Assembly (NCBI GenBank): GCA_000091205.1
Contig: AP006501.2
Source of the DNA: Cyanidioschyzon merolae
Taxonomy: Eukaryota
DNA length: 64,000 nt
Reading direction: 5' to 3' (one strand)
The notes under the pieces are model-generated. The model saw nothing but the letters and a program-made list of their open reading frames with translations, was not told where the DNA came from and searched no databases. Positions 8,532 through 39,872 of the stretch are shown one piece after another. Each line of letters opens with the position of its first letter. The stretch's first letter is position 1. The position numbers and the translations under genes were made by a program.

Positions 8532-9886
8532 ATGCGCTACACCGGATTCAGATAAACATGGAACATTGACCCATCCGCTATGTTCCTTTTCATATGATTT
8601 TTTCTGAGCGATCTTAGATGCACCATTGGCATTCGAGGTGCAGCAGTAGGTGCGTACGGATTCATACGTGGTTTCGGGGCTCCAGCTTGTCTATTCAGTG
8701 TGCCGCTATCGACTAGTTGGTGCTGGAATTTTTTAGTGCGCTGGAATCAAAACATTACGTGTTGCTATCGAATACGGGATCGCAACAGAATACATGTCAC
8801 TGACCAAATCGTATGTACAAGCGTCCGCTCTCCTCCTTTGCTACCGTTTCGTATGCTTCAGTCACACAATCTTCGTGTTTTCCATCTTTCCGTATCACAG
8901 AGGCTCGTGAGTGCGGCTACTCGTACCGCCAGATTGACGCGGATAATACCTCGACAACGCCCCGTAGCGGCCGCTTTGTAAGCGCATCCCCAACAGTCAC
9001 TGAACCTGTCACGTCAAATGATCCTGATCGATTGAACGGCAAATCCGTCTGCCTTCGTGGGCATCGACGGAACTGCATTCACGCTCAGCTTGATCCATCT
9101 CACCGGGCTATGCTGGCAGGGTCTCCCGTCTCTCCTGCTAGAATGTGAGAGCATCGTCGACTAGGGCTTGGGTTAGCGCAGCGATCGCTTCCGGGGCGGC
9201 GAGCGCCTCACCGCTTCTGACCGAGTCAGCGTCGACGCATCGAGAATGCTCGACATCGTGCACCGACCTGGACTTTGCTGCAGATACCTCTATTATCCTG
9301 GATACGATCGCGTTCCGCATACGCTCTATCGAACGGAGCAGCGTGCGCTTTCGAGTGCAGCGGACAGCGTACTTGCCAAGCGTCCGCTCAGGAGTGGAAA
9401 CAGCGGCGGGTTCCATGTCGAACCTCGTTTACTGCGAATAGCACGAACACGGGCAAAGCGTGTAGGCATCACGCGCGATAGGGCGACGCTCGGATGACGA
9501 GGGTGTTTGGCGAACACACGGGAACGACTACCGTTATCCAAGCGTCGCTGCTGCAGCGCACGAATCTATTCTGTATACGAGCAAGATGAGCGCGACGAGG
9601 GAAGCGAAGCTCGTAACGTCCGCCTGGACGTGACCTGCATTGAGCACAGCCAAAAGCAACGAGACCGACACATGAGCGCTGCACTCCATGTCCTTCGACG
9701 AAGGAGAACGCTGCTGGCGTGAGAGGAAACGGAGGCGTATGGAAACACGGAGAGAAGCGAAAGGACCGAGAGGCAGTCGCACCAGAAACCGTAAGGGCTG
9801 GTCTTGACGACGCCCGAGAACACACTTAAACTTTAGCTCGCATACCCGCATAAGAGGTGCATTTTCATACTACGCTGACATGGATG
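8532..9886. repeat. Direct repeat copy 1 (about 1.35 kb); partner at 28117-29451
   Basis: Homology starts at 'cagataaacatggaacattgaccc' (8532 / 28117) and ends at 'gcattttcatactacgct' (9886 / 29451). Embedded ORFs 8700-8981 and 28276-28557 differ at 2 of 93 residues, so the copies are about 98% identical. Confidence 0.85.
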
Positions 9887-12042: not shown

Positions 12043-13326
12043 CTATGAAGCCGTTGGGCTCGACACGGGATCTTCGCTGGCGATGTCCTCGGCCTCGTCC
12101 TCGGAGTCTATTTCATCCGTCGCTGGCCAGATGCTCGGAGGCATATGCTTCATCTGGACAGAGGGAGCACCTTCTAGTTGGCGCAATTGTTCGATAACTT
12201 TGCTCTTCACCTTCTCTAGATAATCTCTCGAATTCTGGTTCTCCAGTTCACGCATTGGTTGAATATGGAGAGAATATTCTGGAGCGAAGTATTCCCAGTA
12301 ATCATTGTATGGAATCTGGGCGTCTACCGATATGCCTAGAAGCACCGAGGTCTCAAAGAGCCAGCAGCGGGCAACGTTTCGGATGTTGTAGCCACCACCG
12401 CCGAGGACCAGCATCGGGATTCGGAACGAACGAACAAAAGCCACCGCATTCGCATGTCCCTGTACCGTCAAGTTAAAGCACCCGAGTCGATCATGGGCCA
12501 GAGAATCCGCGCCACACTGCATCACGATTGCACCCGGTTGATATACTTCGATGACCTTGGTTATTATCGGCTCGAAAATGCGACTGAAACCTGCATCATC
12601 CATGCCGTCTTTCAGGGGCACGTTCACCGCGTATCCTTCACCGCGCCCGTAGCCGCGGTCCCATACATCTCCGGTTCCCGGGAAAAAGTTGTCTCCGTAT
12701 TTGTGGAAGGACACCGTGAGCACTCGATCTGTGGTGTAGAAGGCTTCTTCGACACCATCACCATGATGCACATCAATATCGATGTAGAGCACACGCGGGT
12801 AGAGACGCAGCAGTTCGAGAATTGCCAGTACGATATCGTTCACATAGCAGAAACCGCTCGCTTCACTTTTCTTGGCATGATGAAGACCACCTGCCCAGTT
12901 AATCGCAATATCACTGGTACCCGACATGAGTTTTCTGGCACCGTCGATACTACCGCCGGCAGATACGGCGCAAAAGTCCCAAAGACCGTCAAACAGCGGA
13001 CAGTCGCCGTGTTGTCGTCCGACGTTAAACCGCTGTAGCTGGTCCAAAACGTCGTCGGTTATGGTGTCCGGGGTTGTGTTTCGCAGGAACTCTATATAGT
13101 CGTGGGCGTGGAACTTTTCGCACTCCTCAGGGCTCGCTTTACGAGGCTTGTAGACGTCCATATGGCGATAGAGACCGTACGCGAGACATAGGTTGTGCGT
13201 GATGGCCATTCGGTGCGGTTTCATGGGATGATGCTGTCCATAATAGTAGCCCCCAACATCAAAGTCCATAAAATAGGCCACGCGCAAACGGTCGGTGGAA
13301 CCATACAGAGCCTGGCTCGACAGCAT
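12043..13326 (-). CDS. Class I histone deacetylase (RPD3/HDAC1-like), 427 aa, intronless
   Basis: ATG (plus-strand 'cat' at 13324-13326) verified. Classic HDAC catalytic motifs are present: [44 protein letters not shown], and an acidic C-tail. Confidence 0.9.
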
Positions 13327-13459
13327 GAGTCCAGTGAAGATCGAGACGTTCGCTAGAGCACCGAAAACAAGCGAGGAACCTGAAGCGTCCGGGTGGCTTT
13401 GTATGCACGGATGCTCGAAGCCTAGCTAGCGCACAACTTGGCTGAGGATGCGCACCCCT

Positions 13460-16005
13460 GGAAACAAACGTCTTTCAAAAGAAAAACGTTGCTGCCAGTG
13501 GTACAGTAGTGGCGGCAACCGCACCCTAGCCAAGAAGTCTCCAACTGATGTGCAGACGCCTTCCAGCTTTTTTCGACTGGCCACCCACTACTGCTTCCAA
13601 CTTTTTCCCATATAATTCCACATTCAGAGATGGTTCCATAAAGTTTTCTCTTGTCAGCTCTGGGGGTCTATTCTCCATCAACGCATATTTCCTTATATTG
13701 CTGGCAGCATTAAAGTCTCGGTTCATAAACTCCATACGTTTCGTGCCGTTGGGAGTTGTACTCACTAATGCAAGTAGTCCACGAACTTTCGCGCTCCTTT
13801 CCATTTGCTCTTCCGTCAGCGTACCGTACTTTCTTATAACCTCAGGACTCCGCTGGCACTTTTCCATCTCGACCCTCTGAAGTGTACACCCTAGCTCATG
13901 GTGTGTATAGGACGTTCGAAACTCATCTACAGGTATCGTGACGATACTCCGTGCACACTCTTTGTACGTTCTTGTCGTTGGAGCTGGCGTAGTTCCTTGC
14001 TTGGGTCTTCCGTCACCCTGCTCCGTACGCTACTACGAGTCTCTGACTTTCATCCTCCTTCAAGGCGCTCAGCAGATTGAAAAAGTTCGCGAATGCACGC
14101 TGCTTCCCACAATACAAATTCATTCGCAGTCGAACCCACCGGGGCTTGGTCTACTCTTTCCACAGCGCATACCAGTGAGCAATACGAAGTTCCATGAATT
14201 TCCGAAGAGCCTGAATGTCCGCTCGTCGGCTCGTCACCTCGCTCATAGCTTCCAGATGCTCTTTCATTCTTTCATTCCATGCAGCAATTTTCTTCCTCGC
14301 ATTCATTATACCGGATTCTCGATAGTATCTCGCTCTCGAGAACCTCAAAAGACGCATGTATTTCTGACGTAAGTTACCATCAGTACCATCTTCCGCACGC
14401 TGGGGTACTGCGATGGTTATGTTATTTGTGTTTCCGGGATCCGCGCTGACGACAAAGTCGTTATCTTGCACCTCCTGCGTCGCAGGATCCGCCTCCTTCT
14501 CATCTTCATGCATCGTCGCGCCTGCATCCTTCGTCTCGGGCGCAGCCGAGGGAGGGACTGGACGATCTGTCTTCAACCGCCGATAGTGTATACACAAGGC
14601 TACTCCATCGGTTTCGATCATCTCAGTGAATACCTTTTGTTTGCTGACTTTGAGACGTTTGAAATCGAAGATATTCTTCCAGTATGTCTGCCGGTTTTCA
14701 CCGGAGAATTCCTTCCTGCTAACATCGAAATCAGGACTGATCTCGCTCGTGATGCTGCAAAGACGCCAGAGTCGATAGTCACAAAATGTGACTTGATATT
14801 GTACATTGGAACCACGTTGAAGCGCTTCCCCATTAGGAACGCCTTCCGTCTCTCCCACTCTTCATTTTTTCCTCATTCAGCCTCATCTCTGCCGTGCGTT
14901 CGAGTTCGCGGTCCAAAAACACGAAATACCTCAAGATGAGGAGGTAGTATCTTTCCTTATCTTTTCCAACTCTGATATCTTGTCTGCTGGATTAACCAGC
15001 CCCAGTACCGCACGGTGCTCTTGTATAACCGCACGGATTACAGAAGCTTCATTCGTGCACTAATTCGACGCCTTCTTGTCAACGAACTCGATCTCATCTT
15101 CATGATGGCGATCGTTCGTGATGCAATTGATAATCGCCCATTTTCCTTCGCGAGACAGACCCGGGTGGAGTGCAACCACGGCGCGTATCATGAAACGTTC
15201 GAAGTTCGCTGTCAAATGGTTCTTCAGATTCGTGAGGTACTTCATGGCCCCGTAGCTGTAAATATCCCAGTCACCCTTGTACCGAGTACCCTCGAAGCTG
15301 TAGAAGGAATGTTTTTCGTGGAGGGCATGCACTAGCACATTTTCCCTCCGCGCTTTCTCTGTACCAAGCATCAGGTGAGGAATAAAGGTCTTGTCGAAGA
15401 ACTCGCCCGGAATCTCGACCTTTTCCATGTGCGTCCCGTCGCGATACATCTCTCTCACCAAATGCATCAGTCCTGACGACGCCTTGACAATATTCTTCGA
15501 GTACGACGCAACACGTTTTTCGATAGCTTCTCGCAACTTTTCCCTGTACGGATCCTTGATCTGTCCAAGAAGAAAGGTTTTCACCACCATCTCGTCGCAC
15601 AGTTGTCTTTCTTGCCGCTTTCGACGTAGGGCCTCCCCCGTTTTTGCGTTTTCTTCTTATCCTGCTCTTCTGGAATCGGCACTGTTTTTTGTTTTTTTTC
15701 TGGCACCCGGCGACACTGGGCCTCCAGGATCGTAGACTTGCTTTTTCATAGCTTTCCTTTTTTAGTTTTTTTTGAGAAAGAACGCTCTTTGAACTCTTCT
15801 GTTATATACTGCGAAAAAAACACTTGATTAGACTTGTTCGAAGTTTGAAACACAATTGAAATGAAAAACTGTACTTGGCTATGAAGTTAACGAAAATACA
15901 ACTTTTACATTAGATCTACATGCTAGAGATCAGGATCACGTTCCCCTTCAACAACGGCATGTGCGTAGCGTCTCATGCCTGCCTGATCTCCGAGGTGCAC
16001 TCACC
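13460..16005. repeat. Left arm of the large inverted repeat (about 2.55 kb); partner at 20268-22870
   Basis: The reverse complement of the left arm aligns with the right arm. The ORF trios 15060-15590 / 14151-14858 / 13526-13867 (-) and 20696-21226 / 21428-22192 / 22476-22658 (+) are near-identical. The inner boundary matches at 'atcgcgctcggtgagtgcacctcggagatcaggcaggcatgaga'. The outer ends are diverged but still alignable to about 13460 and 22870. Confidence 0.85.
13526..15590 (-). CDS. TnpB/Fanzor-like RuvC nuclease (OMEGA-type RNA-guided endonuclease candidate), left copy, in three ORF blocks: 15590-15060 (helical N-terminal part), 14858-14151 (RuvC-I region), 13867-13526 (RuvC-III region). 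The gaps are introns or shared frameshifts.
   Basis: ATG at 15590 verified ([19 protein letters not shown]...). Block 2 carries the RuvC-I-like ...[19 protein letters not shown], with the Asp codon at 14439-14441. Block 3 carries the diagnostic RuvC-III ...[19 protein letters not shown], with the Asp codon at 13715-13717 (D-x-NAA-x-NI as in TnpB, Fanzor and Cas12). Block 2 starts at GTG, so it is not an independent gene. The frame upstream of block 3 stays open ([22 protein letters not shown]...), suggesting a +1 frameshift or intron junction near 14013-14029. Confidence 0.6.
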
Positions 16006-16599
16006 GAGCGCGATGCAAACTAGTCACAAATTATTTATTAAAGAACAACTATCTTAAAAGCCCCATACAGCACGCGCGCCTATGGGGTCTAGTTTTTCCG
16101 AAGAAGCTCTGAAAGTGGGTTAAACCGGGGTGCTTGGGCGACGACGAAGGAAGCCCACGCCAGGGACCATGACCGCAACGAACGGAGGGGCGGAGGCAGT
16201 GGCAGCAGAAAATATTGACGAGAGTTCTGAGTAGTTATCCGCTGCTCCCGAAACAACGCTGCAGGTTCCGGCGCAAATCCTGGATCCATCCTCGAACTCG
16301 GGCTACGTTTTACCTCCCACCTTGAGCACCTACCTCAACTTTGGAAACACTCTCGGCGGATACTTCGGAAGGCGGCTATCGATATGCTCGTGGTCGAAGC
16401 TGGAATAAGCGACTTACCCGCCTATGTGTTTGGGGAACGGATACGTAACCGCTGAACGGGTGCTTTGCAGACTGTTCCCAATGGTTGAGGGTAGCTTCAC
16501 GCGTCCGGCAAGATAAAGTTCGCATTCGAATCGACCTTGACTAATGTACTTCTGATTCTACGCTAGCGCTGCGGCAGACACTCAATGAACGACTGGAAT

Positions 16600-19500
16600 G
16601 CAGGAGGCGCTGGTGGCATGTGCTCTCACACACCTTGTGGAGGGTGCATCTAAATGGACGACGCATCTCTCGAGTACCGCAGCGTTACTCCTATACCCTT
16701 ATGCGCTACGACTCGATAGGTTTCGCATCATGGAATATTTGCGGTGTGGCCTCGATACTAGACGACGAGATATCGAATTACCAGTACAGTAATGAAGAAC
16801 TGATACAAGTCGAGGACTGTACAATAGGAAAAGAGACCCAACCAGACACGGAGAAGGAGACACAGAAACCTCATGATCCACCTAGATGCAAAATAACCAG
16901 AGAAAGTAGCTCAGGAAAGAGCCCGAAGAAGAAAAAGACCAGCAAGAAATAAACAGAAGAATAGAAAAAAGAACTCCCAAATGAGCCCATCACAAGGTAT
17001 CCCCCGAGAGGGCACCCCAGCTGGAACTCAAGAAAGCCGTCGCCAAACCCAGGCACCTACTCACAGCGCTGAAGATCCGAAAAGCCGTGCATACAAATTT
17101 TTTGACCAATTGACACGCGAGTTTGTAGATGGGAATCAGAAGATTGCCAGAGAGCTGGGACTGCTTGCACCAGAACGCAACAGTTGCAAACCTCGGTACC
17201 TGAAACGACGTACCAAAACTCGGATTGATGAATGCTACCGAGTCTATAAGATCGTCAACCGCACCGCCATACACGCCAACGCCGGAGACAAAGAAGCGAA
17301 GGCAGCGCTACCGGCGCTACAGGCGCAACATGAAGAAGCTATCAAAAGAAAGAAGAAACTTTCCAGAGAAGACAAACGAGAGGATCGAAACCGCAGAATC
17401 GCCTCCCTGGCGAAATCTATGCTGGAGAGCACCAACGAAGATGAGATCTGGCGCTACATTCGATCGAGACTCGACCCACCAAAAAAGTGCTTGGGGCTCA
17501 CACCAACTCTGTATAAGGAAGAGCTGAGGACGGAGCGTGCCTCAGTGAATGAGGCCTGGACAGACCACTGGACAGAGCTGCATGAAGAAGCAACTGGACA
17601 CTGCTAAGACCCAATCTATTGGCACCAATATGCTGCAGAACTACCGCGCCTCGACCCGGTACCGGAATGGAACGACCCAATCTTCTGGCCTGAATCTGTC
17701 CGGACTCTGCTATGCTCAAGCAACCGCAAAACACCTGGCTTTGACGGTATCCCTACGGAGTGGATGAAACTGGTGATCCCAAAAGACGGGACAACAGGGA
17801 CACCATCGATACCAGATGAACCTGACAGAATCTTAGGCAAGCGCCTTCTGGAGCTCATCCAACGCATGTTCGAAGAAGCGTACATCCCAGATGTATGGAG
17901 GACTGCCGAGGTCGTATCGATCCTCAAAAAGGACTCCGAACCCCACAGACATGAATATCTACCGGACTATGCGCCTCATCCCGTCAATCATGAAGCTACT
18001 TTGCGCCAACCTCACGAACCGGACTCAGAGGGGCCTTGAGGAACGCAACTTCCTCGCCCCAGAGCAGGCTGGATTCCGGAGCCGCGAGGAGTGCATGAGC
18101 CATGACCTGACCTTCATTGAAGTGGTGCAACGTCGCTCCATTAGCTGCCAACAACCAACTTACGTATGCTTCATCGACTTTCAAAAGGCCTTTGACACGG
18201 TCCCGCACGAGGCTCCATTTCTGAAGATGGAACGTGCCAGAGTCTCCGGAAAGTGCTTAGCGTTCTTCCGTGCGCTCTATGCAGACTCGTGGATGTGCAC
18301 CCGACTGGGCGACTGCTCAAGAACCCCTTCGATAAGAATCCGCCGTGGACTGCGACAGGGCGACCGCGCATCCCCGCGCCTTTTCAACATCTTCATCAAC
18401 GATCTGCTGAACAACTGCAGACAATACGGGCTTCAGGTGTCGTGGATAGACTGTGGAGAACCCGGTGAGGAGCGCCTACATAGAAACCGCCTCGCAGGCC
18501 TTCTACTTGCGGACGATGTCGTGCTGTTGGCACCCGCCCCGGAAACGCTTGCGGCTAGCATGCAACAAGTCAGCGCCTGGGCCGATCGCTGGGTTATGAA
18601 CATAGGAGCATCGAAGTGCGGCGCCATGGTCATCCTTGGAGACTCGCAGCGCATTCGCAATCGCTCGTGGCGGTTGCAGAATCAGGAAATTCCGATCGTG
18701 GAAAAATATCGCTACCTGGGGGTCTGTCTCACGCCGACGCTCGACGAAAAGGCACAAGTCGACGAGATGATCGCCAAGATGCATAGACGTACAGAGATCG
18801 CACGTCCATTCTTATCCGACCCCTCTATCTGCATAGCAATCCGTACGAGGGCACTAAGGATGTGTATCATCCAGCCTTCGACCTGGGGTGCTGAATGGTG
18901 CGGCATGAAGCACACAAATGCCTCGCGTCTGCATACAGCCGCCAACAGGGCAATGCGACTCGTTGGTGTTGGATGCTCAGTGCAGCGCAGAGCGACCAAC
19001 CCGCTGGCACTCGGACTTGAACTCCAAATAGCCTCGATAGAAGCGATAGCAGCAGGCTGCCGGGCATGTATACGGGCCAAAGGGCCCACTATGCGCACCT
19101 CCTTGAGTCGGATTTTCATGCAGACCCCAACGCACCGCTAGAACACTTGGATGAAATCAGCGCAGATTTGGCTGAAGCGCCTCTTACGCGAAAACACGCT
19201 ACCCAATCGTTCCCCAGGAATGTAGAAGACTTCAGACGCCTCAAGCGAACGGTCCAAACAACAATATGGGAAGGTAGACACGGTACCAGTCGCGCTAGTA
19301 ACGCCGGCTTGACTCTATATCGGAACTACAACCTAGCATACACATGCAAGTACTGGTGGGAGGCGCTGGAATTCCCGGGACTTGCTCGCGGTACCCTGTG
19401 GCTTGCCAAAATCCGTGTTAGTGGCATCTGGCTACCAGCACCGGCTCTAAGCCGTACGGGAACACTGGAACCGCACTGGGAGTCACACTGTCCCTGCTAT

Positions 19501-19700
19501 CGAGACGAAATCCCCGAGACGCTGACATATTTAAGCTTACAGTGCCCGCGCTCGAAGCAGGAGCGCAGCGAGCTCCTTGAAGGACAGCAGGAGCTCGGCA
19601 TCACCGTGATAGTCGAAGGCCGGACACTCACTCTGAGTGTAGCACTGGCAACTGATGGTCCGCTAACGGAGCCTCAGCGCTCATGAGTGGCGAAGAAACT
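16600..19700 (+). mobile_element. Degenerate non-LTR (LINE-like) retrotransposon remnant at the centre of the palindrome
   Basis: RT motifs are split across frames. IPDVWRTAEVVSILKKDSEP (in ORF 17764-18039) is followed, after a frameshift, by YRTMRLIPSIMKLL...FIDFQKAFDTVPHE...RGLRQGDRASPRLFNIFINDL...LLADDVVLLA (in ORF 17891-19141). The C-terminal ORF 19066-19686 carries a Cys/His motif, HCPCYRDEIPETLTYLSLQCP. The upstream ORF 16981-17607 is K/R/E-rich. No APE endonuclease domain or poly(A) tail is seen. Confidence 0.7.
17764..19141 (+). pseudogene. Reverse transcriptase (non-LTR type), frameshifted
   Basis: RT domains 0-7 are recognisable but distributed over two overlapping frames, with the frameshift near 17900-18040. 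Confidence 0.7.
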
Positions 19701-20267
19701 CACATGCTACCTTCTAGGCAGCAGGTCCAACGAATCGGATGAGCACACGGGTTTAGTGCTCTTTGTGCCTACCCACTGTGGTGGGTGTCAAGCACAAACC
19801 CGCATTGCCAACCGACAACACATTCAATGCATGATCACGAAGGAAAGAGGCGGCTCGCACGATATATCCTAACAGCCAAGTTTCTCCAGCGTGTCGTGCA
19901 GCGAAGACAAGCCTGCATCCGCAGACTGTCCGAGCACAAACTGACGACGAGACCCGATTCTACTTCGGTTGAACCACGCCTCGAGCCGACGCGCTCTGGG
20001 GTATAGAAAAGCTGCTCTAGCTCGATGAACTATCTGCTCCAGCATTTAAGGTCCAAAGGCGGATACGGAAAGGCAGGTACTAGGCACACACGATAGGACG
20101 TATGAAACGACCAGAGTATCCGAGGTGAAGTATAGGTACTGTAGCTTGGAGGCAGGCTGTTTGATGGATACCTAACCGCGCACTGAAAAAAATAACATAA
20201 AAAAGTAAGAAAAGAAAAAGCGCACAATTGGAAAATGCTGGCACAAGTAAACGTCTTGTCCATGAAA

Positions 20268-22870
20268 AAAAGAATCGCGCTCGGTGAGTGCACCTCGGAG
20301 ATCAGGCAGGCATGAGACAAGACGCGCGTGCCGTTTTTGAAGGGAAACGCGATCCTGATCAGTAGCGTGTTGTTCTGCTGTAAAAGTCGGATTCCCGTTC
20401 AGATCATAGCAAAGTATAGTTTTCATTTCAATTGTGTTTCAAACTTCGAACAAGTCTAATCAAGTGTTTTTTTCGCAGTATATAACAGAAGAGTTCAAAG
20501 AGCGTTCTTTCTCAAAAAAACTAAAAAAGGAAAGCTATGAAAAAGCAAGTCTACGATCCTGGAGGCCCAGTGTCGCCGACTGCCAGAAAAAAAACAAAAA
20601 ACAGTGCCGATTCCAGAAGAGCAGGATAAGAAGAAAACGCAAAAACGGGGGAGGCCCTACGTCGAAAGCGGCAAGAAAGACAACTGTGCGACGAGATGGT
20701 GGTGAAAACCTTTCTTCTTGGACAGATCAAGGATCCGTACAGGGAAAAGTTGCGAGAAGCTATCGAAAAACGTGTTGCGTCGTACTCGAAGAATATTGTC
20801 AAGGCGTCGTCAGGACTGATGCATTTGGTGAGAGAGATGTATCGCGACGGGACGCACATGGAAAAGGTCGAGATTCCGGGCGAGTTCTTCGACAAGACCT
20901 TTATTCCTCACCTGATGCTTGGTACAGAGAAAGCGCGGAGGGAAAATGTGCTAGTGCATGCCCTCCACGAAAAACATTCCTTCTACAGCTTCGAGGGTAC
21001 TCGGTACAAGGGTGACTGGGATATTTACAGCTATGGGGCGATGAAGTACCTCGCGAACCTGAAGAACCATTTGACAGCGAACTTCGAACGTTTCATGATA
21101 CGCACCGTGGTTGCACTCTACCCGGGTCTGTCTCGCGAAGGAAAATGGGCGATTATCAATTGCATCACGAACGATCGCCATCATGAAGATGAGATCGAGT
21201 TCGTTGACAAGAAGGCGTCGAATTAGTGCACGAATGAAGCTTCTGTAATCCGTGCGGTTATACAAGAGCACCGTGCGGTACTGGGGCTGGTTAATCCAGC
21301 AGACAAGATATCAGAGTTGGAAAAGATAAGGAAAGATACTACCTCCTCATCTTGAGGTATTTCGTGTTTTTGGACCGCGAACTCGAACGCACGGCAGAGA
21401 TGAGGCTGAATGAGGAAAAAATGAAGAGTGGGAGAGACGGAAGGCGTTCCTAATGGGGAAGCGCTTCAACGTGGTTCCAATGTACAATATCAAGTCACAT
21501 TTTGTGACTATCGACTCTGGCGTCTTTGCAGCATCACGAGCGAGATCAGTCCTGATTTCGATGTTAGCAGGAAGGAATTCTCCGGTGAAAACCGGCAGAC
21601 ATACTGGAAGAATATCTTCGATTTCAAACGTCTCAAAGTCAGCAAACAAAAGGTATTCACTGAGATGATCGAAACCGATGGAGTAGCCTTGTGTATACAC
21701 TATCGGCGGTTGAAGACAGATCGTCCAGTCCCTCCCTCGGCTGCGCCCGAGACGAAGGATGCAGATGAGCAGAAGGCGGATCCTGAGACGCAGGAGGTGC
21801 AAGATAACGACCTTGTCGTTGGCGCGACGATGCATGAAGATGAGAAGGAGGCGGATCCTGCGACGCAGGAGGTGCAAGATAACGACTTTGTCGTCAGCGC
21901 GGATCCCGGAAACACAAATAACATAACCATCGCAGTACCCCAGCGTGCGGAAGATGGTACTGATGGTAACTTACGTCAGAAATACATGCGTCTTTTGAGG
22001 TTCTCGAGAGCGAGATACTATCGAGAATCCGGTATAATGAATGCGAGGAAGAAAATTGCTGCATGGAATGAAAGAATGAAAGAGCATCTGGAAGCTATGA
22101 GCGAGGTGACGAGCCGACGAGCGGACATTCAGGCTCTTCGGAAATTCATGGAACTTCGTATTGCTCACTGGTATGCGCTGTGGAAAGAGTAGACCAAGCC
22201 CCGGTGGGTTCGACTGCGAATGAATTTGTATTGTGGGAAGCAGCGTGCATTCGCGAACTTTTTCAATCTGCTGAGCGCCTTGAAGGAGGATGAAAGTCAG
22301 AGACTCGTAGTAGCGTACGGAGCAGGGTGACGGAAGACCCAAGCAAGGAACTACGCCAGCTCCAACGACAAGAACGTACAAAGAGTGTGCACGGAGTATC
22401 GTCACGATACCTGTAGATGAGTTTCGAACGTCCTATACACACCATGAGCTAGGGTGTACACTTCAGAGGGTCGAGATGGAAAAGTGCCAGCGGAGTCCTG
22501 AGGTTATAAGAAAGTACGGTACGCTGACGGAAGAGCAAATGGAAAGGAGCGCGAAAGTTCGTGGACTACTTGCATTAGTGAGTACAACTCCCAACGGCAC
22601 GAAACGTATGGAGTTTATGAACCGAGATTTTAATGCCCCTATCAATATAAGGAAATGAGCGGTGCTGGAGGAAAGACCCCCAGAGTAGACAATAGAAAAC
22701 CTTTTTGGACAACCTCTCAAAGTCGAACTATATGAGATAAAGTTGGAACCAGTATTAGGTGGCCGATCCAAAAAGGCTGGAAGGCGTCTGCACATCAGCT
22801 GGAGGCGTTTCGTCTAGGGCGCGTTCGCCGGCACGACTGTACACGGCCGCCGGCTGTGCGTCACGTGGAG
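20268..22870. repeat. Right arm of the large inverted repeat
   Basis: See the left arm. Relative to the left arm, the right arm carries a 57-bp in-frame tandem duplication at about 21761-21900 and indels after the RuvC-III motif. Confidence 0.85.
20696..22658 (+). CDS. TnpB/Fanzor-like RuvC nuclease, right copy, in blocks 20696-21226, 21428-22192 and 22476-22658; the C-terminus is frameshifted relative to the left copy
   Basis: ATG at 20696 verified. Block 1 differs from the left copy at 3 of 176 residues. RuvC-I Asp codon is at 21902-21904 (SADPGNTNN). RuvC-III Asp codon is at 22626-22628 ([11 protein letters not shown]). The ORF stops right after the motif, whereas the left copy continues about 50 aa; the equivalent residues ([12 protein letters not shown]) appear in another frame at about 22770-22810. 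Confidence 0.55.
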
Positions 22871-22953
22871 CCGCGAGCGGCGGGCTTCTACCAAGTGCCG
22901 CTTGTACCAAACGCACTTGCACCTCGTGTGGACACAGACGCATACCTGAGTGC

Positions 22954-25875
22954 ATGGCCGATTCTGGAGATGAAACGGAGTGGGAACTTGCTGCCGAGAA
23001 GTTTGTAGCGACTGTTGCACCGAAAGAAACTACTCCGTCTCGGGGGAGGCCCTCGAGTCGGGCGACGCGCTCGCCGTTGCGCGAGGCTCCGCCCGAGGCC
23101 GCGCCCAACGCGGGAGCCGGCACTGCAGGCCGACCTGGACGCAGTGCGGGCAGCTCGGGGCCCTCGGAACCCACCGCAGACACCACCACAGGCACCACAC
23201 GCGTCGCTCGAGGTGCCCAACCGAAACCTGCAGGCAAGCCGAGCGGCGTGGGTGGAAACAGAGGGAGCGACGTGGCTGCGGCCCCGTCTCAGGTTATTCA
23301 GGTTTTGCGTTTCAGCAGTGATGCGTCGCTCACAGCAACCGTTCGGGGGAGTCAAGCAAACCAGCAGGCGCTCTGGGATCGGGCGCGATCGGCGTTCGAG
23401 TCGGCGCTGCGTCGGAACGCAACACGACTGGAGCTCGATGCGCTGGCAGCGGCCCTGCAGACTGTAGGCGTCGACATCTCTCTTGGTCGAAACGCAGGCA
23501 CACGCGGCGGCGGACCTGCAACGAACGGGCCCACTGACGGCAGCGGTGGACGGCGTTCGGGAGCCGCTGCGGGCGGCACGGCGTCGCGAACTCCGCAGCC
23601 AGCGCTCACGCGAGGCCGCAACGCCTGGACCCCCTCGTTTCTGACCAAAACTGCGGATACGTCCGCTACAGAGGGGGAGAATCTGGTCAATTCCTCTCGA
23701 CGAAAAGCAAAAGCTATACTGAACAAACTCGTACCGGAGAAGTTCGTCACGCTAGCGCAGCAGATTCTTGATATGCCGCTCCATCATTACGACGTACTGG
23801 AAGCGGTGATTTCAGAAATCTTTGATAAAGCGCTTGCGGAGCCGTATTTTTGTGGAGTCTACGCAGATCTGTGTGAAGTTTTGAACCGCGCGCTTCCGAG
23901 CATCGCGATCGAGAGTGCTTCGGGGACCAAACAAACCAACTTTCGCAAAATGCTTCTCGCGCGCTGCCAAGCTGAGTTTGTGCAGCGCGCCCTAGCCTCG
24001 GAAGAGCGCGCAACAGACGAGCAGGAACTTGAGGTTTGCGCCCACAACCGACGCCGCACGCTAGGAAATACAATTTTCGTGGGTGAGCTCTTCAAGCGGC
24101 ATCTGCTGAGCGAAAAAATCATTCATGAGTGTGTACAGATGCTGCTGAAAGAGGGCGAGAACGAAGATAGCATCGAAACGCTTGCCAAGTTGCTCTCCGT
24201 CGCCGGCAGCAGCATGGATCGCCCTGAGGCTCGGTCCTACATGGACGCCTACTTTACCAAGATCGAAGAAATGGCAAACAACGCACAAATTCGAGCTCGT
24301 TATCGGTTTATGCTCAAGGATTGCGTTGAGCTGCGTAAGCAGAAATGGAAGCCGCGACGAGCCCAAGAACGGCCAGCGACACTGGATGAGATTCACGGGA
24401 AAAAGTCCGGCCGTGCCGCTCGGCAAGCGAGTCAGTCGCTGGCACGCAAAGCTGCTCAGCTGCGCTTCACGGGAGCTGATGCAGAGGCGCCCAAGCCGGA
24501 GGCGGAATCCACAGTTCCAGCAGGGCAAGTGTCCGCGTCTGCCACTGTCCAGGGTCGTGTTGAGAACGCCCGTAACCAGAACGTTGCCGGCGAGACGGTC
24601 ACGGACGCTGCACACGCCAAGTCGGAGTCGGGACCGGTCCCCGATCGGACTGTCGTTTGGACCGAAAACCCTGAACTATTGCGGACGTATATTCGTGGTA
24701 TCATTGAAGACTACGTGGTGAATCCGTATCCGGCAGAGGTACAGGTGGCGCTCACCGAGTCCGGACTTGCCGCACAGCCTGACCTGCTGGCTTTGGCTGG
24801 CGTTCAGGAACTCTTCTCCATGGTCTGCAGTGCGCGCGGGCATGAACGGCAGCCGCTTGTTCGATCCTTTGGAGATGCCTTCCAGCATGTACTTTCTAGG
24901 GAGAAGCTGCTCGAGGCTCTTGTATCGATTACGTCCAATTTGCTTACCTTCGAAGACGAGCTTGATATGCCTACAGCAGGCAAAGTTCTCGGCGAGTTTC
25001 TCGGGACGTTATGCACTAGCCACTGCGCTACGTTCTTACACGACGCTGCTGATATTCATACAGTACTGGCAGCGGTTCCGCCTAATAGACAGGCATCCGT
25101 GCTGCGTTCCTTCTTGGAAACGCTCTTCCGACAGTATCCTTCAGATATGCGAGAGCGCTTCGGCGCTTCCCTGCGAGCACTACGTCCGCTTTTCGTGTCG
25201 CTCCCGCAAACGGAACAGCGCGAACTCGAAGAGCTACTTGCAAAATATGAACTGCTTGAGCTCGTTCCCGAATGGCAGCTCCGACGCCAGCTCCAATACT
25301 ATCTGGAACCTGGAAAGGAGCGTATCGCAGATGCAGCAGACTGGTTGCGAAGCTTCCTGCCCAGAGTGCGGGAAACGCTACGCTCCGAGGACGCAACAGC
25401 ATCCACTGCAAAGTCCAGTCTGAACGAATGGTACGCCTTTTGTCGATTCACTGCGGACCATATCCTATCAACTTATGTCATGGAAGCGCAATCGAGTAGT
25501 ACGATGGATATCATGCGGCGACTACGCCTGATGGTGCCGCTTCTTCGTGAAACAGCCGGAAACATGCCCGCGACCGATGAAACCGACGACGACGACGACG
25601 ACAGTGACCCCGCGGAAGACAAGGAGTGGCGTCAAGCCCAAGTGGCTTTTGCAGTGCAAGCAGGTTGTTATCGTTTGGACTTTCCCACTGATCTCATAAG
25701 CGGCATGTTCCAGGTGCTGTACGACGCGGATGTGATCTCAGAGGAGGCATTCGATCGCTGGCGGGAAGATGTACACGATACGACACCAGGAAAGCTCAAG
25801 GCGCTATTTCATGTGAATGCTTTTCTGAATTGGCTCAAGGAGACTGATGAAGAACCGGAGAAATCCGATGTGTAA
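22954..25875 (+). CDS. eIF4G-like translation initiation factor (MIF4G domain plus C-terminal W2 domain)
   Basis: MIF4G core: KAKAILNKLVPEKFVTLAQQILDMP...VISEIFDKALAEPYFCGVYADLCEVL...TIFVGELFKRHLL. W2-like C-terminus: FQVLYDADVISEEAFDRWRED. The track start 22759 is a GTG inside the inverted-repeat/Fanzor tail. The first ATG, at 22954, is used here, and the true start may lie further downstream. Confidence 0.75.
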   Translation: MADSGDETEWELAAEKFVATVAPKETTPSRGRPSSRATRSPLREAPPEAAPNAGAGTAGRPGRSAGSSGPSEPTADTTTGTTRVARGAQPKPAGKPSGVGGNRGSDVAAAPSQVIQVLRFSSDASLTATVRGSQANQQALWDRARSAFESALRRNATRLELDALAAALQTVGVDISLGRNAGTRGGGPATNGPTDGSGGRRSGAAAGGTASRTPQPALTRGRNAWTPSFLTKTADTSATEGENLVNSSRRKAKAILNKLVPEKFVTLAQQILDMPLHHYDVLEAVISEIFDKALAEPYFCGVYADLCEVLNRALPSIAIESASGTKQTNFRKMLLARCQAEFVQRALASEERATDEQELEVCAHNRRRTLGNTIFVGELFKRHLLSEKIIHECVQMLLKEGENEDSIETLAKLLSVAGSSMDRPEARSYMDAYFTKIEEMANNAQIRARYRFMLKDCVELRKQKWKPRRAQERPATLDEIHGKKSGRAARQASQSLARKAAQLRFTGADAEAPKPEAESTVPAGQVSASATVQGRVENARNQNVAGETVTDAAHAKSESGPVPDRTVVWTENPELLRTYIRGIIEDYVVNPYPAEVQVALTESGLAAQPDLLALAGVQELFSMVCSARGHERQPLVRSFGDAFQHVLSREKLLEALVSITSNLLTFEDELDMPTAGKVLGEFLGTLCTSHCATFLHDAADIHTVLAAVPPNRQASVLRSFLETLFRQYPSDMRERFGASLRALRPLFVSLPQTEQRELEELLAKYELLELVPEWQLRRQLQYYLEPGKERIADAADWLRSFLPRVRETLRSEDATASTAKSSLNEWYAFCRFTADHILSTYVMEAQSSSTMDIMRRLRLMVPLLRETAGNMPATDETDDDDDDSDPAEDKEWRQAQVAFAVQAGCYRLDFPTDLISGMFQVLYDADVISEEAFDRWREDVHDTTPGKLKALFHVNAFLNWLKETDEEPEKSDV

Positions 25876-28116: not shown

Positions 28117-29451
28117 GTTTAGCTCAGATAAACATGGAACATTGACCCATCCGCTATGTTCCTTTTCATATGATTTTTTCTGAGCGATCTTAGATGCACC
28201 ATTGGCATTCGAGGTGCAGCAGTAGGTGCGTACGGATTCATACGTGGTTTCGGGGCTCCAGCTTGTCTATTCAGTGTGCCGCTATCGACTAGTTGGTGCT
28301 GGAATTTTTTAGTGCGCTGGAATCAAAACATTACGTGTTGCTATCGAATACGGGATCGCAACAGAATACATGTCACTGACCAAATCGTATGTACAAGCGT
28401 CCGCTCTCCTCCTTTGCTACCGTTTCGTATGCTTCAGTCACGCAATCTTCGTGTTTTCCATTTTTCCGTATCACAGAGGCTCGTGAGTGCGGCTACTCGT
28501 ACCGCCAGATTGACGCGGATAATACCTCGACAACGCCCCGTAGCGGCCGCTTTGTAAGCGCATCCCCAACAGTCACTGAACCTGTCACGTCAAATGATCC
28601 TGATCGATTGAACGGCAAATCCGTCTGCCTTCGTGGGCATCGACGGAACTGCATTCACGCTCAGCTTGATCCATCTCACCGGGCTATGCTGGCAGGGTCT
28701 CCCGTCTCTCCTGCTAGAATGTGAGAGCATCGTCGACTAGGGCTTGGGTTAGCGCAGCGATCGCTTCCGGGGCGGCGAGCGCCTCACCGCTTCTGACCGA
28801 GTCAGCGTCGACGGATCGAGAATGCTCGACATTGTGCACCGACCTGGACTTTGCTGCAGATACCTCTATTATCCTGGATACGATCGCGTTCCGCATACGC
28901 TCTATCGAACGGAGCAGCGTGCGCTTTCGAGTGCAGCGGACAGCGTACTTGCCAAGCGTCCGCTCAGGAGTGGAAACAGCGGCGGGTTCCATGTCGAACC
29001 TCGTTTACTGCGAATAGCACGTACACGGGCAAAGCGTGTAGGCATCACGCGCGATAGGGCGACGCTCGGATGACGAGGGTGTTTGGCGAACACACGGGAA
29101 CGACTACCGTTATCCAAGCGTCGCTGCTGCAGCGCACGAATCTATTCTGTATATGAGCAAGATGAGCGCGACGAGGGAAGCGAAGCTCGTAACGTCCGCC
29201 TGTACGTGACCTGCAGTGAGCACAGCCAAAAGCAACGAGACCGACACATGAGCGCTGCACTCCATGTCCTTCGACGAAGGAGAACGCGGCTGGCGTGAGA
29301 GGAAACGGAGGCATATGGAAACACGGAGAGAAGCGAAAGGACCGAGAGGCAGTCGCACCAGAAACCGTAAGGGCTGGTCTTGACGACGCCCGAGAACACA
29401 CTTAAACTTTAGCTCGCATACCCGCATAAGAGGTGCATTTTCATACTACGC
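28117..29451. repeat. Direct repeat copy 2
   Basis: Near-identical to 8532-9886. Confidence 0.85.
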
Positions 29452-29904
29452 TAAAACGGGACTACTCATGCGCATACGGAGGTACAGATGTCGTGCACCG
29501 ATAGCGTTCCAAGCGCATCCACTTCGGAGTATCGATTCCCGAACCGCTCTCTTCAGTCTATATATGGTGACGCCTCATCGCCCTTGTGCCCTTCTTACCG
29601 TGTACGAAAGTAACTCGGGCCGCACGAAACACGTCATCAAAGTAGTGCTGCCTGCGGCGGCTGGCCCTCGAGCCTCCACTGTCACGCGGAACGTTTTCGT
29701 TGCGACGTCGACGGCGAGGACGCGCTTGGGGTCGCTTTGACGAGAGGCACTCACGTTTACGTCACTGGACCAGTAAAGGCGCTGGTTTCACGCGAAAGTT
29801 ACCAGTTCATCTTTCGCGACACGTCTGACGTTGTTTGTGAAGAACGCCCTGTCGAGGCCGTCAACAACGAAAACGCCCCTGTGTCCCATGCAGTTGTTAC
29901 CCAA

Positions 29905-35358: not shown

Positions 35359-38126
35359 GTGCGAAACGATAGATCAATGGAATTCGTTGTCCATGAAAAG
35401 TACGCTGTCGTGCGTGCGGGGTATACGGCGGCGCTGGAGCGTCGTATGATGCGACACGGTCAACTCGATAGGCAGCATCATTGGGCCGCTTCTCTGGCCG
35501 CTTTACGGAAGCTTTGCTCATGACGCATCGTTTTCGTATGAATGGTGAAAGGAATATGCGGTTATTTCCTTACGATGACGACTCGAGATTTTCAATGAGT
35601 CCACAATCGTGCATGAAAGAATGTCATGTTGGTGCTGGAATGGAGGCTATGACCGGTGCTGTCGGCGTATCGCGGGTTGATAGACTTGGGAATCCGCAAG
35701 AACACCACCGCTGCTGCACAGGGATATTCAGAATGAATGAGATGTAGATGATGGAGGATGTGCTTGTCTCCATGCAGTCATGCATGCGAATTTCATGCGT
35801 GACATGGGAAACAAGGCACGCTTTACTCGGCACGCTCCTGATACCAAGCACATATTTCAGCGCCTCTTCTGGGATACACTGCATGATGAGGACTTGAACC
35901 TTGAGGGATTCCCTTTACCAGCTCGCAGTGAGTCTACATGCAGTTTCGTAGAGCAATCGAATCCGAAACATGACCCAGGGGCGTCTCCCACGTACCTGGA
36001 ATGCCCACGCCCCTGTATCCCATGCTCCATACCAAATTCAGTGTTCTTTCGTGAGCGCGTGCCTGAGACCCGATTATTCTGGTGAAACACGCGCGTTCTC
36101 AAGGGCATTGCACGGTCCATTGACCTTCGAACAATGCTGTCTGGGTCGAGCGACACACGCAGTCTCTAGTGGGGTACGATCTTCACTGCCACCCGAGTGT
36201 TATCCGAACAACGCGTTGGCATCCTCTCGTGCTTATAGTCTTGTGACTCAGTTTCGTTTCGACTCCGCTGCGGCGTACAGCAGGAGACCGAAAGCACGAT
36301 ACCATGTACTGTATAGATTTTAGAAGCATTGCCTGTAGGATATATTGTTTACAAAGCAGCAGAAGGAAGACTGCATTTTCGCTTCAGACAAGTCATACCA
36401 TACTACTCCGATGGTTGAGTAACACTGAAAGAGACATGTAGATGCGTTCCGAGCCAAAAACCGATATTCTCAAGGAATGGTTGCGGTCAATAGTAGAAAG
36501 CGACCCATCGATTACCTTACGTAAACCAAAAGCGACAGCAGTAGCCGCAAGGGGCGTCACTGTTTCTCACCAGCTTATTCTTGCGGTCCTGAAAACACCG
36601 GTATGCGGTCGCAAAAAAACAGCCTTGCTTCACGCATAGTCATCTCGCACCGATATCGAAGCTACGACAGCGTTTCTGGAAAGTCACAATCGGTATGAAG
36701 CACAAGGACGTCGGCTTGTCCTTTTCCAGCCGATGCGACGTCATTCGGACGAAACGGTCGGAGCGTAGAGGGGTATTCGGCGAGCAGGGACTCAGTAGTA
36801 CGTCCGTCCGAACTCGAAGAGAACTGGGATATCAGCATTTGTTCTAGCTGCAGTGGATGCATTTGGCGGCCTCGGTTTGGCTCGAAGATACAGAAACGGA
36901 AGTCGGGGATCCTCGCAAGCTCGGTGCCGCCTGGTGCTGGAGAAAGACGAAAAATCCTCTTCTTCCCGATCATTTAGCGAAGAAGAGCAAGTAACGAAGA
37001 AGAAACAGATGAGGGGAGATGATCGAGAAGAGGTTTTCGCTCGAAAGGACGGTAACGAGACCTTCATGGCACAGCGGGCGTGAATTCAAGGAATCTTGGC
37101 GTTAATGAGTTCAACCAGAGCCAATCAACGCAGCCATCAACATAAGACGATGTCTGGTGCTGCAGACAAGACCCACAGAGCTGACGAGAGCCAGTTTCGT
37201 GTGACAGCCTATCAGCCACGAAAGCTTCTAGGACAAACTAAAACCGATGGCAGACGGTCAGTTAAAAAATGGCTGGGAGGCGTCTGCGAGTGGATAGGTA
37301 TATTTCCCGTCCATGATCATAGGACATTTTGTGATTCTCTGATCGCATATCTTGACAGAGTAGTGCAATAGTCGGCTGGAGTGAGGCGGCTCCTTTTCGC
37401 TCGAGAACCTGCTATGTGCCGGGAGCCGGTTACACTTCAATGATGTAGACACATGCAGCCTGGTACGTTGGGCTGCTTTCTCGAGCCGCGAAATACCCAG
37501 GCACGTTCTGCTGCTTTCGAGCACTGGCGGCAGCGCGGAGAAGCAATCGACATCGCGAAACTGCATTGCGTAGCGGGCCCGAGATGCAAACTGGTCATCT
37601 TCATGGACGACGCTTGTGCGCGATCGGCTCGTCTTGGCATCGAGTCCGTTTACGGCAGACGCTCTTCCGCAGATTTCTGGTCTGGCCTTCATGGCGGGCG
37701 CGCGGTCAAGCCAGTGCTCTGCTTTCGTCTATCAGTGATGCTGCATGAGGCCTGAACGCAGTCACGATTTCGACGGAACTATTTTAATCGCTCAGATGGA
37801 GTCGTGTTCCACATCTCAACCGGGCAGTACATTTGCTTCATCTTGTCAGGTTTGAAACCAGATCACCAACGCGTCTGGTGAAACAGGTCACTAGAGCGTT
37901 CCCCAGCTGTCCCGGATGCAGGCTTGGCGCCACGTGAAAAGCATCCAGCACCAAAGGCTCTGCGATGAGCGGCAAGCACCTGATGATTGCGCATGTGGCT
38001 CGTGATTCCCATAGATACCGATCTGAGGCGTTCGTTGCCCCGCCGGTACGATGCCAGTCGTCAGTGCCGACCATCACATCTCCATGTACCTCGTTGGGGT
38101 CAGGATTCGCAATCTTTGGGATATGC

Positions 38127-39872
38127 TTACGAGAGGCCGTACGTCTCGAGCGGGTGCCGCACTCGGTCAAAGTCGTAGACACGACGTGGATCCGTGATAT
38201 GCCCTGTGATGGCACTAGCAGCGGCAGTATAGGGCGAGGCGAGGAAGACCGCACTCGATTTGTCGCCCATTCGGCCTGGAAAATTCCGATTTGTGGTGCT
38301 CACAACGACCTCGGGCCCGTTCGCACGCCCAAAGGTGTCCTTCGGACCTCCCAGACACGCTGCGCAACTCGGGGCACCCGGCGGAAGGCATCCCGCGTCC
38401 TTGAAAATCTGCATCAGAGTCTTGCCGTTAAGTTTTCTGGTTTCCAGGTCTTCATAGATGCGGCGTGTGGCCGGAACAAGAAACGTAGGAACACGTACCT
38501 GACGCCCGTCGAGAATCCGCGCTGCGGCAACAAAGTCCTCCGTCTTGCCGCCAGTGCAAGAGCCAATGTACACTCGCGTAATCTTCACGTCCTCGCAATT
38601 GCGGGCAAGATCTAAATTATCGGGGCTGTGTGGTTTCGCTACCGCAGGCTCCAGTTTGGATAAGTCGTACTGTCGGTCCGTGTAGAATGAGGCATTCGAG
38701 TCGGTGTGGAACACATCAAACGGCTTCGTTGTTCGTGCTCGGACGTAAGCACACGTAATTTCATCCGGAGGAAAGATGCCGTTCTTACCACCAGCCTCAA
38801 TCGCCATATTACAAAGTGTCATGCGATCGGCAATAGAAAACTGCTCCATCCGATCACTGACAAACTCCATCGCCCGGTAGGTAGCGCCAGCGACACCAAT
38901 ATCGCCTATGATTTGGAGAATGATATCCTTGGCCATGATGTAATCAGGCAGGGTTCCATTCAAGGCAAAGCGCATTGTTGCGGGCACTTTGATGAGGAGC
39001 TTACCGGTGCCCATTATAAAACCTGCATCAGTGTTCCCGATGCCAGTCGCGAACTCGCCGAAAGCTCCTGCAGTACACGTGTGAGAATCTGTCCCGAAAA
39101 GCACCTCACCAGGACGGCAGTGCCCTTCCTGCGCCAGTGCTATGTGGCAGACCCCTTTGTATTCAGGGTTCGCCCGAAAGTCGCTCCGATCGGTGATATC
39201 GTAGAAGTAACGGATGCCTTGTTCGCGAGCAAAATCCCGAATAATATCCACGTTCCTATTCGCTTTCTCATCCGCAGTGAAGATGTAGTGATCGGGGATA
39301 ATGACAATCTTTTCAGGGTCCCAGACAGGTGCATCCGAACCGAACTCGCGTTTGAAGACTGCGATCGTCCCCGGACCACAGACGTCGTGTGTCATGAGCA
39401 CATCAACGTCAACAAAGAGATTCTCTCCTGGTTTCACGAAGCTCCTTCCAGCGGCTTTGGCTATGATCTTCTCTGTTATCGTCTGCGGCGCCTTCACGGC
39501 TACACTCGGAGCTGCCTTCGTTGAGGTCGGCGCAGAGATACCAGACTTTAATTCAGCCAGGGGATTTTTGGGGCCAATTCGTACCCGTCGCTGCTCCTGA
39601 CTGACTCCAGTTCTGGCACTGCAACCTTGTGCTCGGCTATGAAGTGTCACTGGAGAAACGAACATGATATTGTAAACGAGGGAAGACGCACCCGGTATAG
39701 CGTAACTGCTCCAAAGCCTGAAATCATGCGATGGTTCGCGCGCGTTCGTCGCGTGCAGCGTCGCGAGTGCCCTCCGTCGGCATAAAGAGAAATACATCCT
39801 ACTGGATATAAGTGGATACAACGGACACATCCCAGGGGGCGCCCGGGCTGCATCCGGCTTCAATCTAGACAT
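38127..39872 (-). CDS. leuC: 3-isopropylmalate dehydratase / homoaconitase large subunit (aconitase family, standalone LeuC type) with an ~140-aa S/T/R-rich N-terminal extension, possibly an organellar presequence
   Basis: Aconitase-family motifs: VDVLMTHDVCGP, GTDSHTCTAGAFGEFATGIG, IGSCTGGKTEDF, NRNFPGRMG. ATG at 39872 verified; the true start may be an internal ATG. Confidence 0.85.
   Translation of the reverse strand: MSRLKPDAARAPPGMCPLYPLISSRMYFSLCRRRALATLHATNAREPSHDFRLWSSYAIPGASSLVYNIMFVSPVTLHSRAQGCSARTGVSQEQRRVRIGPKNPLAELKSGISAPTSTKAAPSVAVKAPQTITEKIIAKAAGRSFVKPGENLFVDVDVLMTHDVCGPGTIAVFKREFGSDAPVWDPEKIVIIPDHYIFTADEKANRNVDIIRDFAREQGIRYFYDITDRSDFRANPEYKGVCHIALAQEGHCRPGEVLFGTDSHTCTAGAFGEFATGIGNTDAGFIMGTGKLLIKVPATMRFALNGTLPDYIMAKDIILQIIGDIGVAGATYRAMEFVSDRMEQFSIADRMTLCNMAIEAGGKNGIFPPDEITCAYVRARTTKPFDVFHTDSNASFYTDRQYDLSKLEPAVAKPHSPDNLDLARNCEDVKITRVYIGSCTGGKTEDFVAAARILDGRQVRVPTFLVPATRRIYEDLETRKLNGKTLMQIFKDAGCLPPGAPSCAACLGGPKDTFGRANGPEVVVSTTNRNFPGRMGDKSSAVFLASPYTAAASAITGHITDPRRVYDFDRVRHPLETYGLS

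Follow-up and report, generated by a model that had tools for sequence, protein, structure and literature searches.

A conserved fold at the 3' end of Fanzor1 family CMe-1A elements, and the placement of that end upstream of co-oriented genes in Cyanidioschyzon merolae and its relatives

Fanzors are eukaryotic RNA-guided nucleases, and two inverted copies of a Fanzor-type gene form a palindrome in the stretch of the Cyanidioschyzon merolae genome analysed here (64,000 nucleotides (nt) of contig AP006501.2, hereafter the window), with a histone deacetylase (HDAC) gene on one side and an eIF4G-like gene on the other. A single Fanzor1 family, CMe-1A, has been described in C. merolae, with ~150 copies of ~3 kb that lack terminal inverted repeats (TIRs), have target duplications that were not determined and hold their 5' 635 bp in common with TE-N2_CMe (Bao & Jurka, 2013; PMC3627910). 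A 3.2-kb interspersed repeat was reported in 253 copies, ~5% of the C. merolae genome; it is transcribed, carries a truncated open reading frame (ORF) resembling WSV486 of white spot syndrome virus (WSSV), and was called "distributed randomly" (Nozaki et al., 2007; PMC1955436). Fanzor omegaRNAs are transcribed from the transposon's 3' end region, in some cases with overlap of the ORF, and their guide forms the 3' end (Saito et al., 2023; PMC10432273). Their scaffolds vary widely between species in length and stems (Cell 2024; PMC11423790). C. merolae combines a tiny, nearly intron-free genome and efficient homologous recombination with ~250 copies of one Fanzor family, and the results below provide that family with a testable right end, a candidate omegaRNA fold, and a bias upstream of co-oriented housekeeping genes.

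Three-frame translation demonstrated that both arms of the palindrome encode a TnpB/Fanzor-type protein with the RuvC motifs SADPGN, VDEFRTS and NRDFNAA. The catalytic D-E-D residues (D of SADPGN, E of VDEFRTS and D of NRDFNAA) are invariant in 15 family members and recognisable in both window copies. Searches with the repaired protein returned 62 relatives, including P0006, which comes from a related strain and has an uninterrupted 752-aa ORF. A profile of 15 members detected SpuFz1, the Fanzor1 of Spizellomyces (8GKH), through its RuvC region (E=9.4e-9) and gave a weak match to GtFz1. The family profile was needed for this, as nothing significant was obtained with single ORF fragments against Pfam or with phmmer of one intact protein against the PDB. 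We conclude that the arms, called Fanzor-like in an initial annotation made from the sequence alone, are copies of the already described red-alga family CMe-1A, which the 253-copy repeat with its WSV486-like ORF also matches. They agree with the published accounts in organism, protein family and size (~2.55 kb plus a ~690-nt 5' extension, against the reported 3-3.2 kb), in lacking TIRs, in an identity of ~80% between copies, and in ORFs that are mostly broken. They differ in that the right end, left undetermined in those accounts, is now defined, a 3' fold is conserved, and the positions of copies with respect to genes are far from random. Both window copies also lack the 5' extension and instead adjoin a retrotransposon lacking long terminal repeats (non-LTR), a long interspersed nuclear element (LINE).

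The left element occupies 13464-16014 on the minus strand (~2.55 kb, with coding remnants at 13526-15656) and the right element 20274-22878 on the plus strand. The HDAC gene (12043-13326, minus strand, 427 aa) was identified by its Pfam Hist_deacetyl domain (E=1e-89) and is an exact match to BAM82711.1 of strain 10D; the eIF4G-like gene (22954-25875, plus strand, 973 aa, first ATG at 22954) carries Pfam MIF4G and W2 domains. These identities were correctly assigned in the initial annotation, as were the co-orientation of each Fanzor reading frame with its host gene and the intervals from the Fanzor stops at 13526 and 22658 to the host start codons (199 nt and 295 nt). That annotation also placed the 3' tails of two Fanzor genes next to the host genes. 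This holds for the left stop, but both arms have the same two in-frame stops and four frameshifts relative to P0006, located in the left arm at 15060-15062 and 14151-14153 (stops) and at ~14964, ~14868, ~14762 and ~14017 (frame changes). The right arm has further stops from 22656, and its stop at 22658 is premature and specific to that copy, the position homologous to the left stop being 22815-22817. Judged by these lesions, both window copies are pseudogenes and the proteins encoded in cis are dead. A 75-nt tandem duplication (21748-21897, 87% identical) in the acidic repeat region of the Fanzor ORF is present in the right arm only; other family members have one to five similar acidic repeat units.

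Copies for comparison were obtained by scanning metagenome contigs with an alignment of the C-terminal protein region, which yielded 80 hot-spring loci representing ~45 distinct insertions. Fanzor stretches confirmed in these contigs number 438, with ~45 distinct flanks. The last ~140 nt of the element constitute a conserved fold that ends at the transposon boundary and consists of a terminal hairpin and a stable multi-stem module. The fold was derived with RNAalifold from 17 copies of one subclass, and a covariance model was built on that structure. The 17-copy consensus (-20.5 kcal/mol) contains a 13-bp long-range helix in which GCAGTAGTAGGTGG pairs with CCGCCACTACTGT, two inner stem regions, and a terminal hairpin of ~10 bp. 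A mixed alignment of 32 copies gave merely -8.45 kcal/mol because the register of the terminal hairpin differs between subfamilies, and a class-specific alignment was needed. The covariance model matched 53 times in 51 sources, counting the window, and recovered the left copy over its full length (13604-13464, 124.7 bits) and the right copy at 22739-22878 (102.8 bits). In the left module, helix P1 pairs 13594-13581 with 13515-13503; it is followed by inner hairpins, by the conserved loop box CTACTGTAC and by the terminal hairpin H2, which spans 13490-13467. The left copy has a minimum free energy of -62.2 kcal/mol (z=-4.15), with a fold that matches the family consensus. The initial annotation had expected an omegaRNA exactly in the spacers between the Fanzor genes and their neighbours. 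A conserved structured module is indeed present at the right end, although on the left it spans 13604-13464 and only its 3' half falls within the flagged interval, 13327-13525.

The terminal hairpin is the best-supported part of the fold. In the model-fitted alignment, 87.3% of cells are paired, compared with 32-52% when the partners are slid, and 0 of 500 shuffles reach the covariation score; compensatory changes occur at all 9 pairs of this hairpin. It exists in at least three sequence versions: CGTCGTTCGA-CTT-TCGAACGGCG; AACGTTTTTC-TTTT-GAAAGRCGTT, in a shifted register; and a GC-rich version exemplified by the right arm. The right module has the same P1 and inner stems, with an unrelated GC-rich terminal hairpin (CCGCCGGCT...AGCCG..CGGCGG). 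The terminal 36 nt fold with a family median of -11.0 kcal/mol, against -5.6 for control windows, and 21 of 44 copies are in the top 5%; the right copy reaches -17.6 kcal/mol. Conserved G-U pairs are frequent, which indicates the Fanzor-sense strand. In the P0006 copy, whose stop codon is probably premature, the module begins 27 nt past that stop and is wholly noncoding, so its conservation there is not explained by coding constraint; in most other copies the ORF extends ~28 codons into the module. An Rfam search of 13200-23100 gave no match, and the fold appears not to have been described for CMe-1A in the literature searched. An additional helix between CACC after the loop box and G/T-rich bases past the terminal hairpin was considered and rejected (matched 5.15, mismatched 5.12, p=0.49). 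A conserved TATA-like box, TTATAT (13615-13610), lies ~20 nt upstream of the fold; it also encodes L-Y-E of the protein tail and was not counted as evidence.

By comparison of independent copies, the right-end boundary is fixed to within ~10 nt. The arms align with each other only over 13501-16014 and 20274-22842. The initial annotation had described diverged but alignable inverted-repeat ends at 13460-13525 and 22800-22870; the repeat exists, but its alignment stops at 13501 and 22842, and no alignment is possible between 13460-13500 and 22843-22870, although both are part of their own elements. About 45 independent copies run past the palindrome edge through a conserved box, CCGCCACTACTGTACAC, a variable linker and the hairpin to an end at ...GGCGTT(T)G, beyond which the flanks are unrelated. 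Pairwise identity averages 0.82-0.87 over coding sequence and 0.71-0.81 over the final 200 nt, and just past the end of the model it is 0.29, the level of random sequence. The left element would thus end at ~13464, or possibly at 13455, as a subgroup at other loci has a further TTTGTTTCCAGGGG in common with it; one contig from another locus (L052) matches the left copy up to CCAGGGG and differs beyond. The right end, ~22878, was placed by the covariance model, its tail past 22842 being unalignable by sequence. The interval 13327-13525 accordingly comprises ~62-71 nt of element and 128-137 nt of host DNA, and the interval from the 22658 stop to the ATG at 22954 comprises ~220 nt of element and ~75 nt of host DNA (22879-22953). 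The left host stretch (13327-13463) is identical across all HDAC-linked metagenome contigs, and the eIF4G-side arrangement is the same in an independent contig (L086). The first 10-20 nt past GGCGTT in ~25 copies (13463-13450 in the window) are G/T-rich and loosely alike between loci (TTTGTTGGAGGYGG or TTTGTTTCCAGGGG); this could be a frayed element end or a target-site preference. In contig L013 (702-800), precisely the last 49 nt of the element, from the loop box to GGCGTTT, are tandemly duplicated, which helps to mark the boundary.

An alternative view of the palindrome as a Tc1/mariner composite with long TIRs, in which 13502-13507 and 22837-22842 would supply the TA duplication and the CAGT termini, was rejected, as these bases lie inside the element, in the loop box of all copies. 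No TIR was found between the true left end (GGTTAGGC...) and the right end, and the locus has none of the features of a Tc1/mariner-type carrier (TIRs, TA target duplication, DDE transposase), with no transposase present. For comparison with IS200/IS605 elements, the left-end sequence contains a GGACACGTGTCC palindrome within the 5' extension and the right end carries a hairpin; no TnpA was found.

Placement relative to genes was assessed for 43 distinct copies by locating the nearest downstream ORF of at least 150 aa, with random intergenic positions and orientations within the 64-kb window as the null. This ORF has the same orientation as the element in 32 copies and the opposite one in 8, and 3 copies have none (orientation bias p=9e-5). 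In 24 of the 43, a co-oriented ATG occurs no more than 200 nt from the right end, often at a distance of 1-60 nt, against 7.4% under the null (p=1.5e-16), which excludes chance proximity in a compact genome. The family-wide bias of the right end toward starts of co-oriented genes is strong and highly non-random. Among the 31 distinct copies with a well-defined end, 11 have a host ATG only 1-54 nt away, so close that no promoter would fit between element and gene. The ORFs found downstream are host genes of unrelated kinds, encoding kinesin, MCM5, FtsZ, a carboxyltransferase, a metallopeptidase, BRF1, SPX, PPR and WD40 proteins, a TPT transporter, PTH2 and Rrp15. Their Pfam domains begin at residues 1-32, indicating that the first ATG is close to the true start. 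Near-consensus copies, including that of P0006, are not gene-adjacent, and adjacent copies are more diverged (p=0.019, n=31), which favours differential retention over insertion preference. Gene-proximal, co-oriented placement appears to be absent from the literature searched, in which the sole statement on distribution that we found is "random" (PMC1955436).

Taken jointly, these results are in our estimate probably best explained by an omegaRNA scaffold at the right end, outward transcription that sustains the downstream gene, and retention of the copies so placed. On position and comparison with known systems, we infer that the 3' module is a candidate omegaRNA scaffold: the left module is situated at the ORF's 3' end and extends as far as family similarity does. 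The family's omegaRNA would have this fold as its scaffold and would be transcribed outward over the right end, in the Fanzor sense, so that its 3' guide would be copied from adjoining host DNA, namely the DNA upstream of HDAC on the left and upstream of the eIF4G-like gene on the right. The left guide template would be the first ~20 nt of the host spacer, 13463-13444, of which 13463-13455 (the TTTGTTTCCAGGGG tail) may belong to the element. As the local Fanzor genes are dead, such RNAs would be usable only in trans, by intact paralogues. Copies that point their right end into a nearby host gene would keep that gene expressed, become its promoter or 5' leader and be retained, and others would be lost; outward transcription of this kind would explain the family-wide placement pattern. 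The right end may thus serve at once as a guide-RNA module and as a gene promoter or leader, its promoter activity being suggested by geometry only. The suggestion of the initial annotation that the ends double as host promoters gains indirect support from the family-wide placement, and for HDAC and the eIF4G-like gene themselves it is a possibility. A further-reaching proposal, which we put forward as possible and tentative, is that CMe-1A copies are portable promoter or leader modules whose guide-RNA transcription unit drives, or is needed for, the downstream host gene. About half of the ~250 copies would then be kept by the dependence of housekeeping genes (HDAC, eIF4G-like, MCM5, FtsZ, kinesin, BRF1 and others), and each omegaRNA guide would match the upstream region of its own gene. 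If the right end does supply promoters or leaders, guide-RNA transcription would be linked to host gene expression, and this would account for a streamlined genome keeping 5% of its DNA as dead Fanzor copies.

The candidate module resembles the omegaRNAs of the Fanzor1 proteins SpuFz1, GtFz1 and PpFz1 in being a noncoding module at the transposon 3' end, with a scaffold followed by a putative flank-templated guide. Unlike these, the CMe-1A module is a prediction from sequence, and CMe-1A has no 3' inverted repeat or TIR; its guide-proximal hairpin is variable in sequence within the family, and no counterpart of the conserved 7-bp SL1 was identified. With the right ends of IS200/IS605 elements and their TnpB omegaRNA (right-end element RNA, reRNA), it has in common the lack of TIRs and a subterminal right-end hairpin overlapping the putative guide-RNA scaffold, whereas CMe-1A has a eukaryotic host and no TnpA-like transposase, and neither a left-end hairpin nor a target motif has been established. 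Transposon ends also provide outward promoters and 5' leaders, as with outward promoters of insertion sequences (IS), solo LTRs, and the promoter-targeting Tf1 or mPing. CMe-1A is like these in having a mobile-element end directly upstream of host genes and gene-proximal copies that appear to be retained, and differs in that its candidate outward transcript would be the very unit that yields the guide RNA.

Several observations weigh against the omegaRNA and retention explanation. On a MAFFT alignment made without reference to the structure, pairing reaches 90% in the long-range helix and inner stems, with weak covariation (4 double-change pairs; 110 of 500 shuffles equal or higher), so these parts are argued for by conserved complementarity and folding energy only. 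The covariance analysis of further copies that the initial annotation had called for was thus strong for the terminal hairpin and weak elsewhere. The module of the right copy is no stabler than its shuffles (z=+0.66), and both the sequence and the register of the terminal hairpin are free to change, a behaviour not usual in scaffolds bound by protein. All comparison copies are from hot-spring metagenome relatives and none from strain 10D, the relation between age and adjacency rests on 31 copies, and the 128-137 nt host spacer of HDAC could hold its own core promoter. Every contig with the HDAC or eIF4G-like protein carries the element or breaks inside it; because the search for an empty HDAC or eIF4G site found none, the precise end, like any target duplication, is placed within ~10 nt only. 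The free variation of the hairpin would suit a different role, that of a cis-acting mobility signal, either a subterminal hairpin recognised in single-stranded DNA, like those of IS200/IS605 right ends, or a stem-loop at the 3' end that serves RNA-mediated copying. Pairing is kept while sequence and register change, including in the third, GC-rich version of the right arm, which fits recognition by shape. The family has neither TIRs nor a transposase, DNA hairpins also tolerate G-T wobbles, and many copies are 5'-truncated with an intact 3' end, as is typical of 3'-primed copying. However, there is no poly-A tail and no tail in common with the local LINE, target duplications were not seen, and deletion retaining a useful 3' end would explain the truncations equally well. 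Position, length and partial ORF overlap agree instead with known Fanzor and TnpB omegaRNAs, and both roles coexist in IS605 elements, so a mobility signal would not displace the omegaRNA reading. We consider the signal as the source of the conserved fold unlikely.

The placement pattern also has a simpler candidate explanation, in which the elements insert preferentially into open promoter DNA, or are tolerated only there, and the host genes use promoters in their own spacers, the transposon end contributing nothing. Promoter regions are targeted by many transposons, and host DNA remains upstream of both genes in the window (128-137 nt for HDAC and ~75 nt for the eIF4G-like gene). Very short upstream regions are also tolerated in C. 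merolae: divergent ORFs at 39872 (581 aa, minus strand) and 39903 (223 aa, plus strand) have start codons just 31 nt apart, which suggests that such regions are normal in this genome. The 32:8 orientation bias is nevertheless unexpected from targeting of open chromatin alone, 11 of the 31 copies with a well-defined end have a host ATG at a distance of 1-54 nt, and the near-consensus copies are not the gene-adjacent ones; we judge this explanation to be improbable, and continue to prefer outward transcription with retention. The last alternative concerns the window itself, in which the palindrome might be a recent inverted duplication or an assembly artefact, lying beside HDAC and eIF4G by coincidence. 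Over their ~2 kb middle the arms are 98-100% identical, bar the 75-nt indel, and they have every disabling mutation in common. Their ends are far more diverged (87-88% identity in the first 200 nt and 90, 78 and 68% over the last 300 nt), with terminal hairpins unrelated in sequence. This identity profile rules out a recent whole-arm inverted duplication. The two outer junctions and the left inner one also occur in independent metagenome contigs, and the family-level statistics reject chance proximity, making this alternative very improbable indeed. The data fit two old copies, each apparently anchored upstream of its own gene, with interiors homogenised by gene conversion. The two ends would mark old insertions, each anchored independently of the other, in what was once a divergent promoter region of ~210 nt between HDAC and eIF4G, with interiors later homogenised by arm-to-arm conversion and a LINE between their left ends. 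The palindrome is therefore mobile-element-derived in having Fanzor arms, as first annotated, but looks like two gene-converted copies flanking a retrotransposon.

The LINE occupies 16015-20273 on the plus strand and contains a reverse transcriptase ORF (17891-19141; RVT_1, E=2.7e-22). It takes the place of the ~690-nt extension in both arms, and its A-rich 3' end abuts 20274. The inner junction (GC/ATCGCGCTCGG, the slash marking the break at 16014/16015 and 20273/20274) recurs to the nucleotide at other loci (L007, L053, L074, L081, L064, L022 and L032). In most copies the sequence upstream of it is the ~690-nt TE-N2-like extension. Other partners occur in three configurations: the LINE 5' end in opposite orientation, the A-rich LINE 3' end in the same orientation, and the LINE at ~19000. 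This recurrence points to a LINE that is site-specific, or to a single LINE that bridges two head-to-head targets whose intervening segment was deleted.

In one sample, the HDAC flank is joined to another, 5'-truncated copy of ~560 nt (L001:2307-3027, compared with L052:2981-3545), which is 99.5% identical to the L052 copy up to ...CCAGGGG. Either gene conversion replaced the copy in that strain, or the assembly is chimeric. Truncation at varied 5' points is seen in many copies, the 3' end being always intact (L028, L042, L052, L055, L057, L084 and others), a pattern compatible with 3'-primed copying or with deletion in which the 3' end is retained.

A direct repeat of 1.3 kb (8548-9876 and 28124-29452, 99.2% identical) flanks a DUF202 gene, HDAC, the palindrome, and the eIF4G-like gene with its neighbours; no more copies of it were found among the fetched loci. 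A third, heavily decayed Fanzor relic at 37066-37332 on the plus strand retains the last ~45 Fanzor codons (tblastn) and a weak match to the 3' fold model at 37234-37332 (17.5 bits, E=0.02). It has no co-oriented downstream gene and faces the 3' end of a minus-strand ORF (38126-39872). In other metagenomes (L090:853-4493 and L091), a DDE_3 (Tc1/mariner-type) transposase has directly downstream of it a Fanzor1 relative of 40% identity, and imperfect TIRs of ~30 nt surround both genes, unlike the TIR-less C. merolae family.

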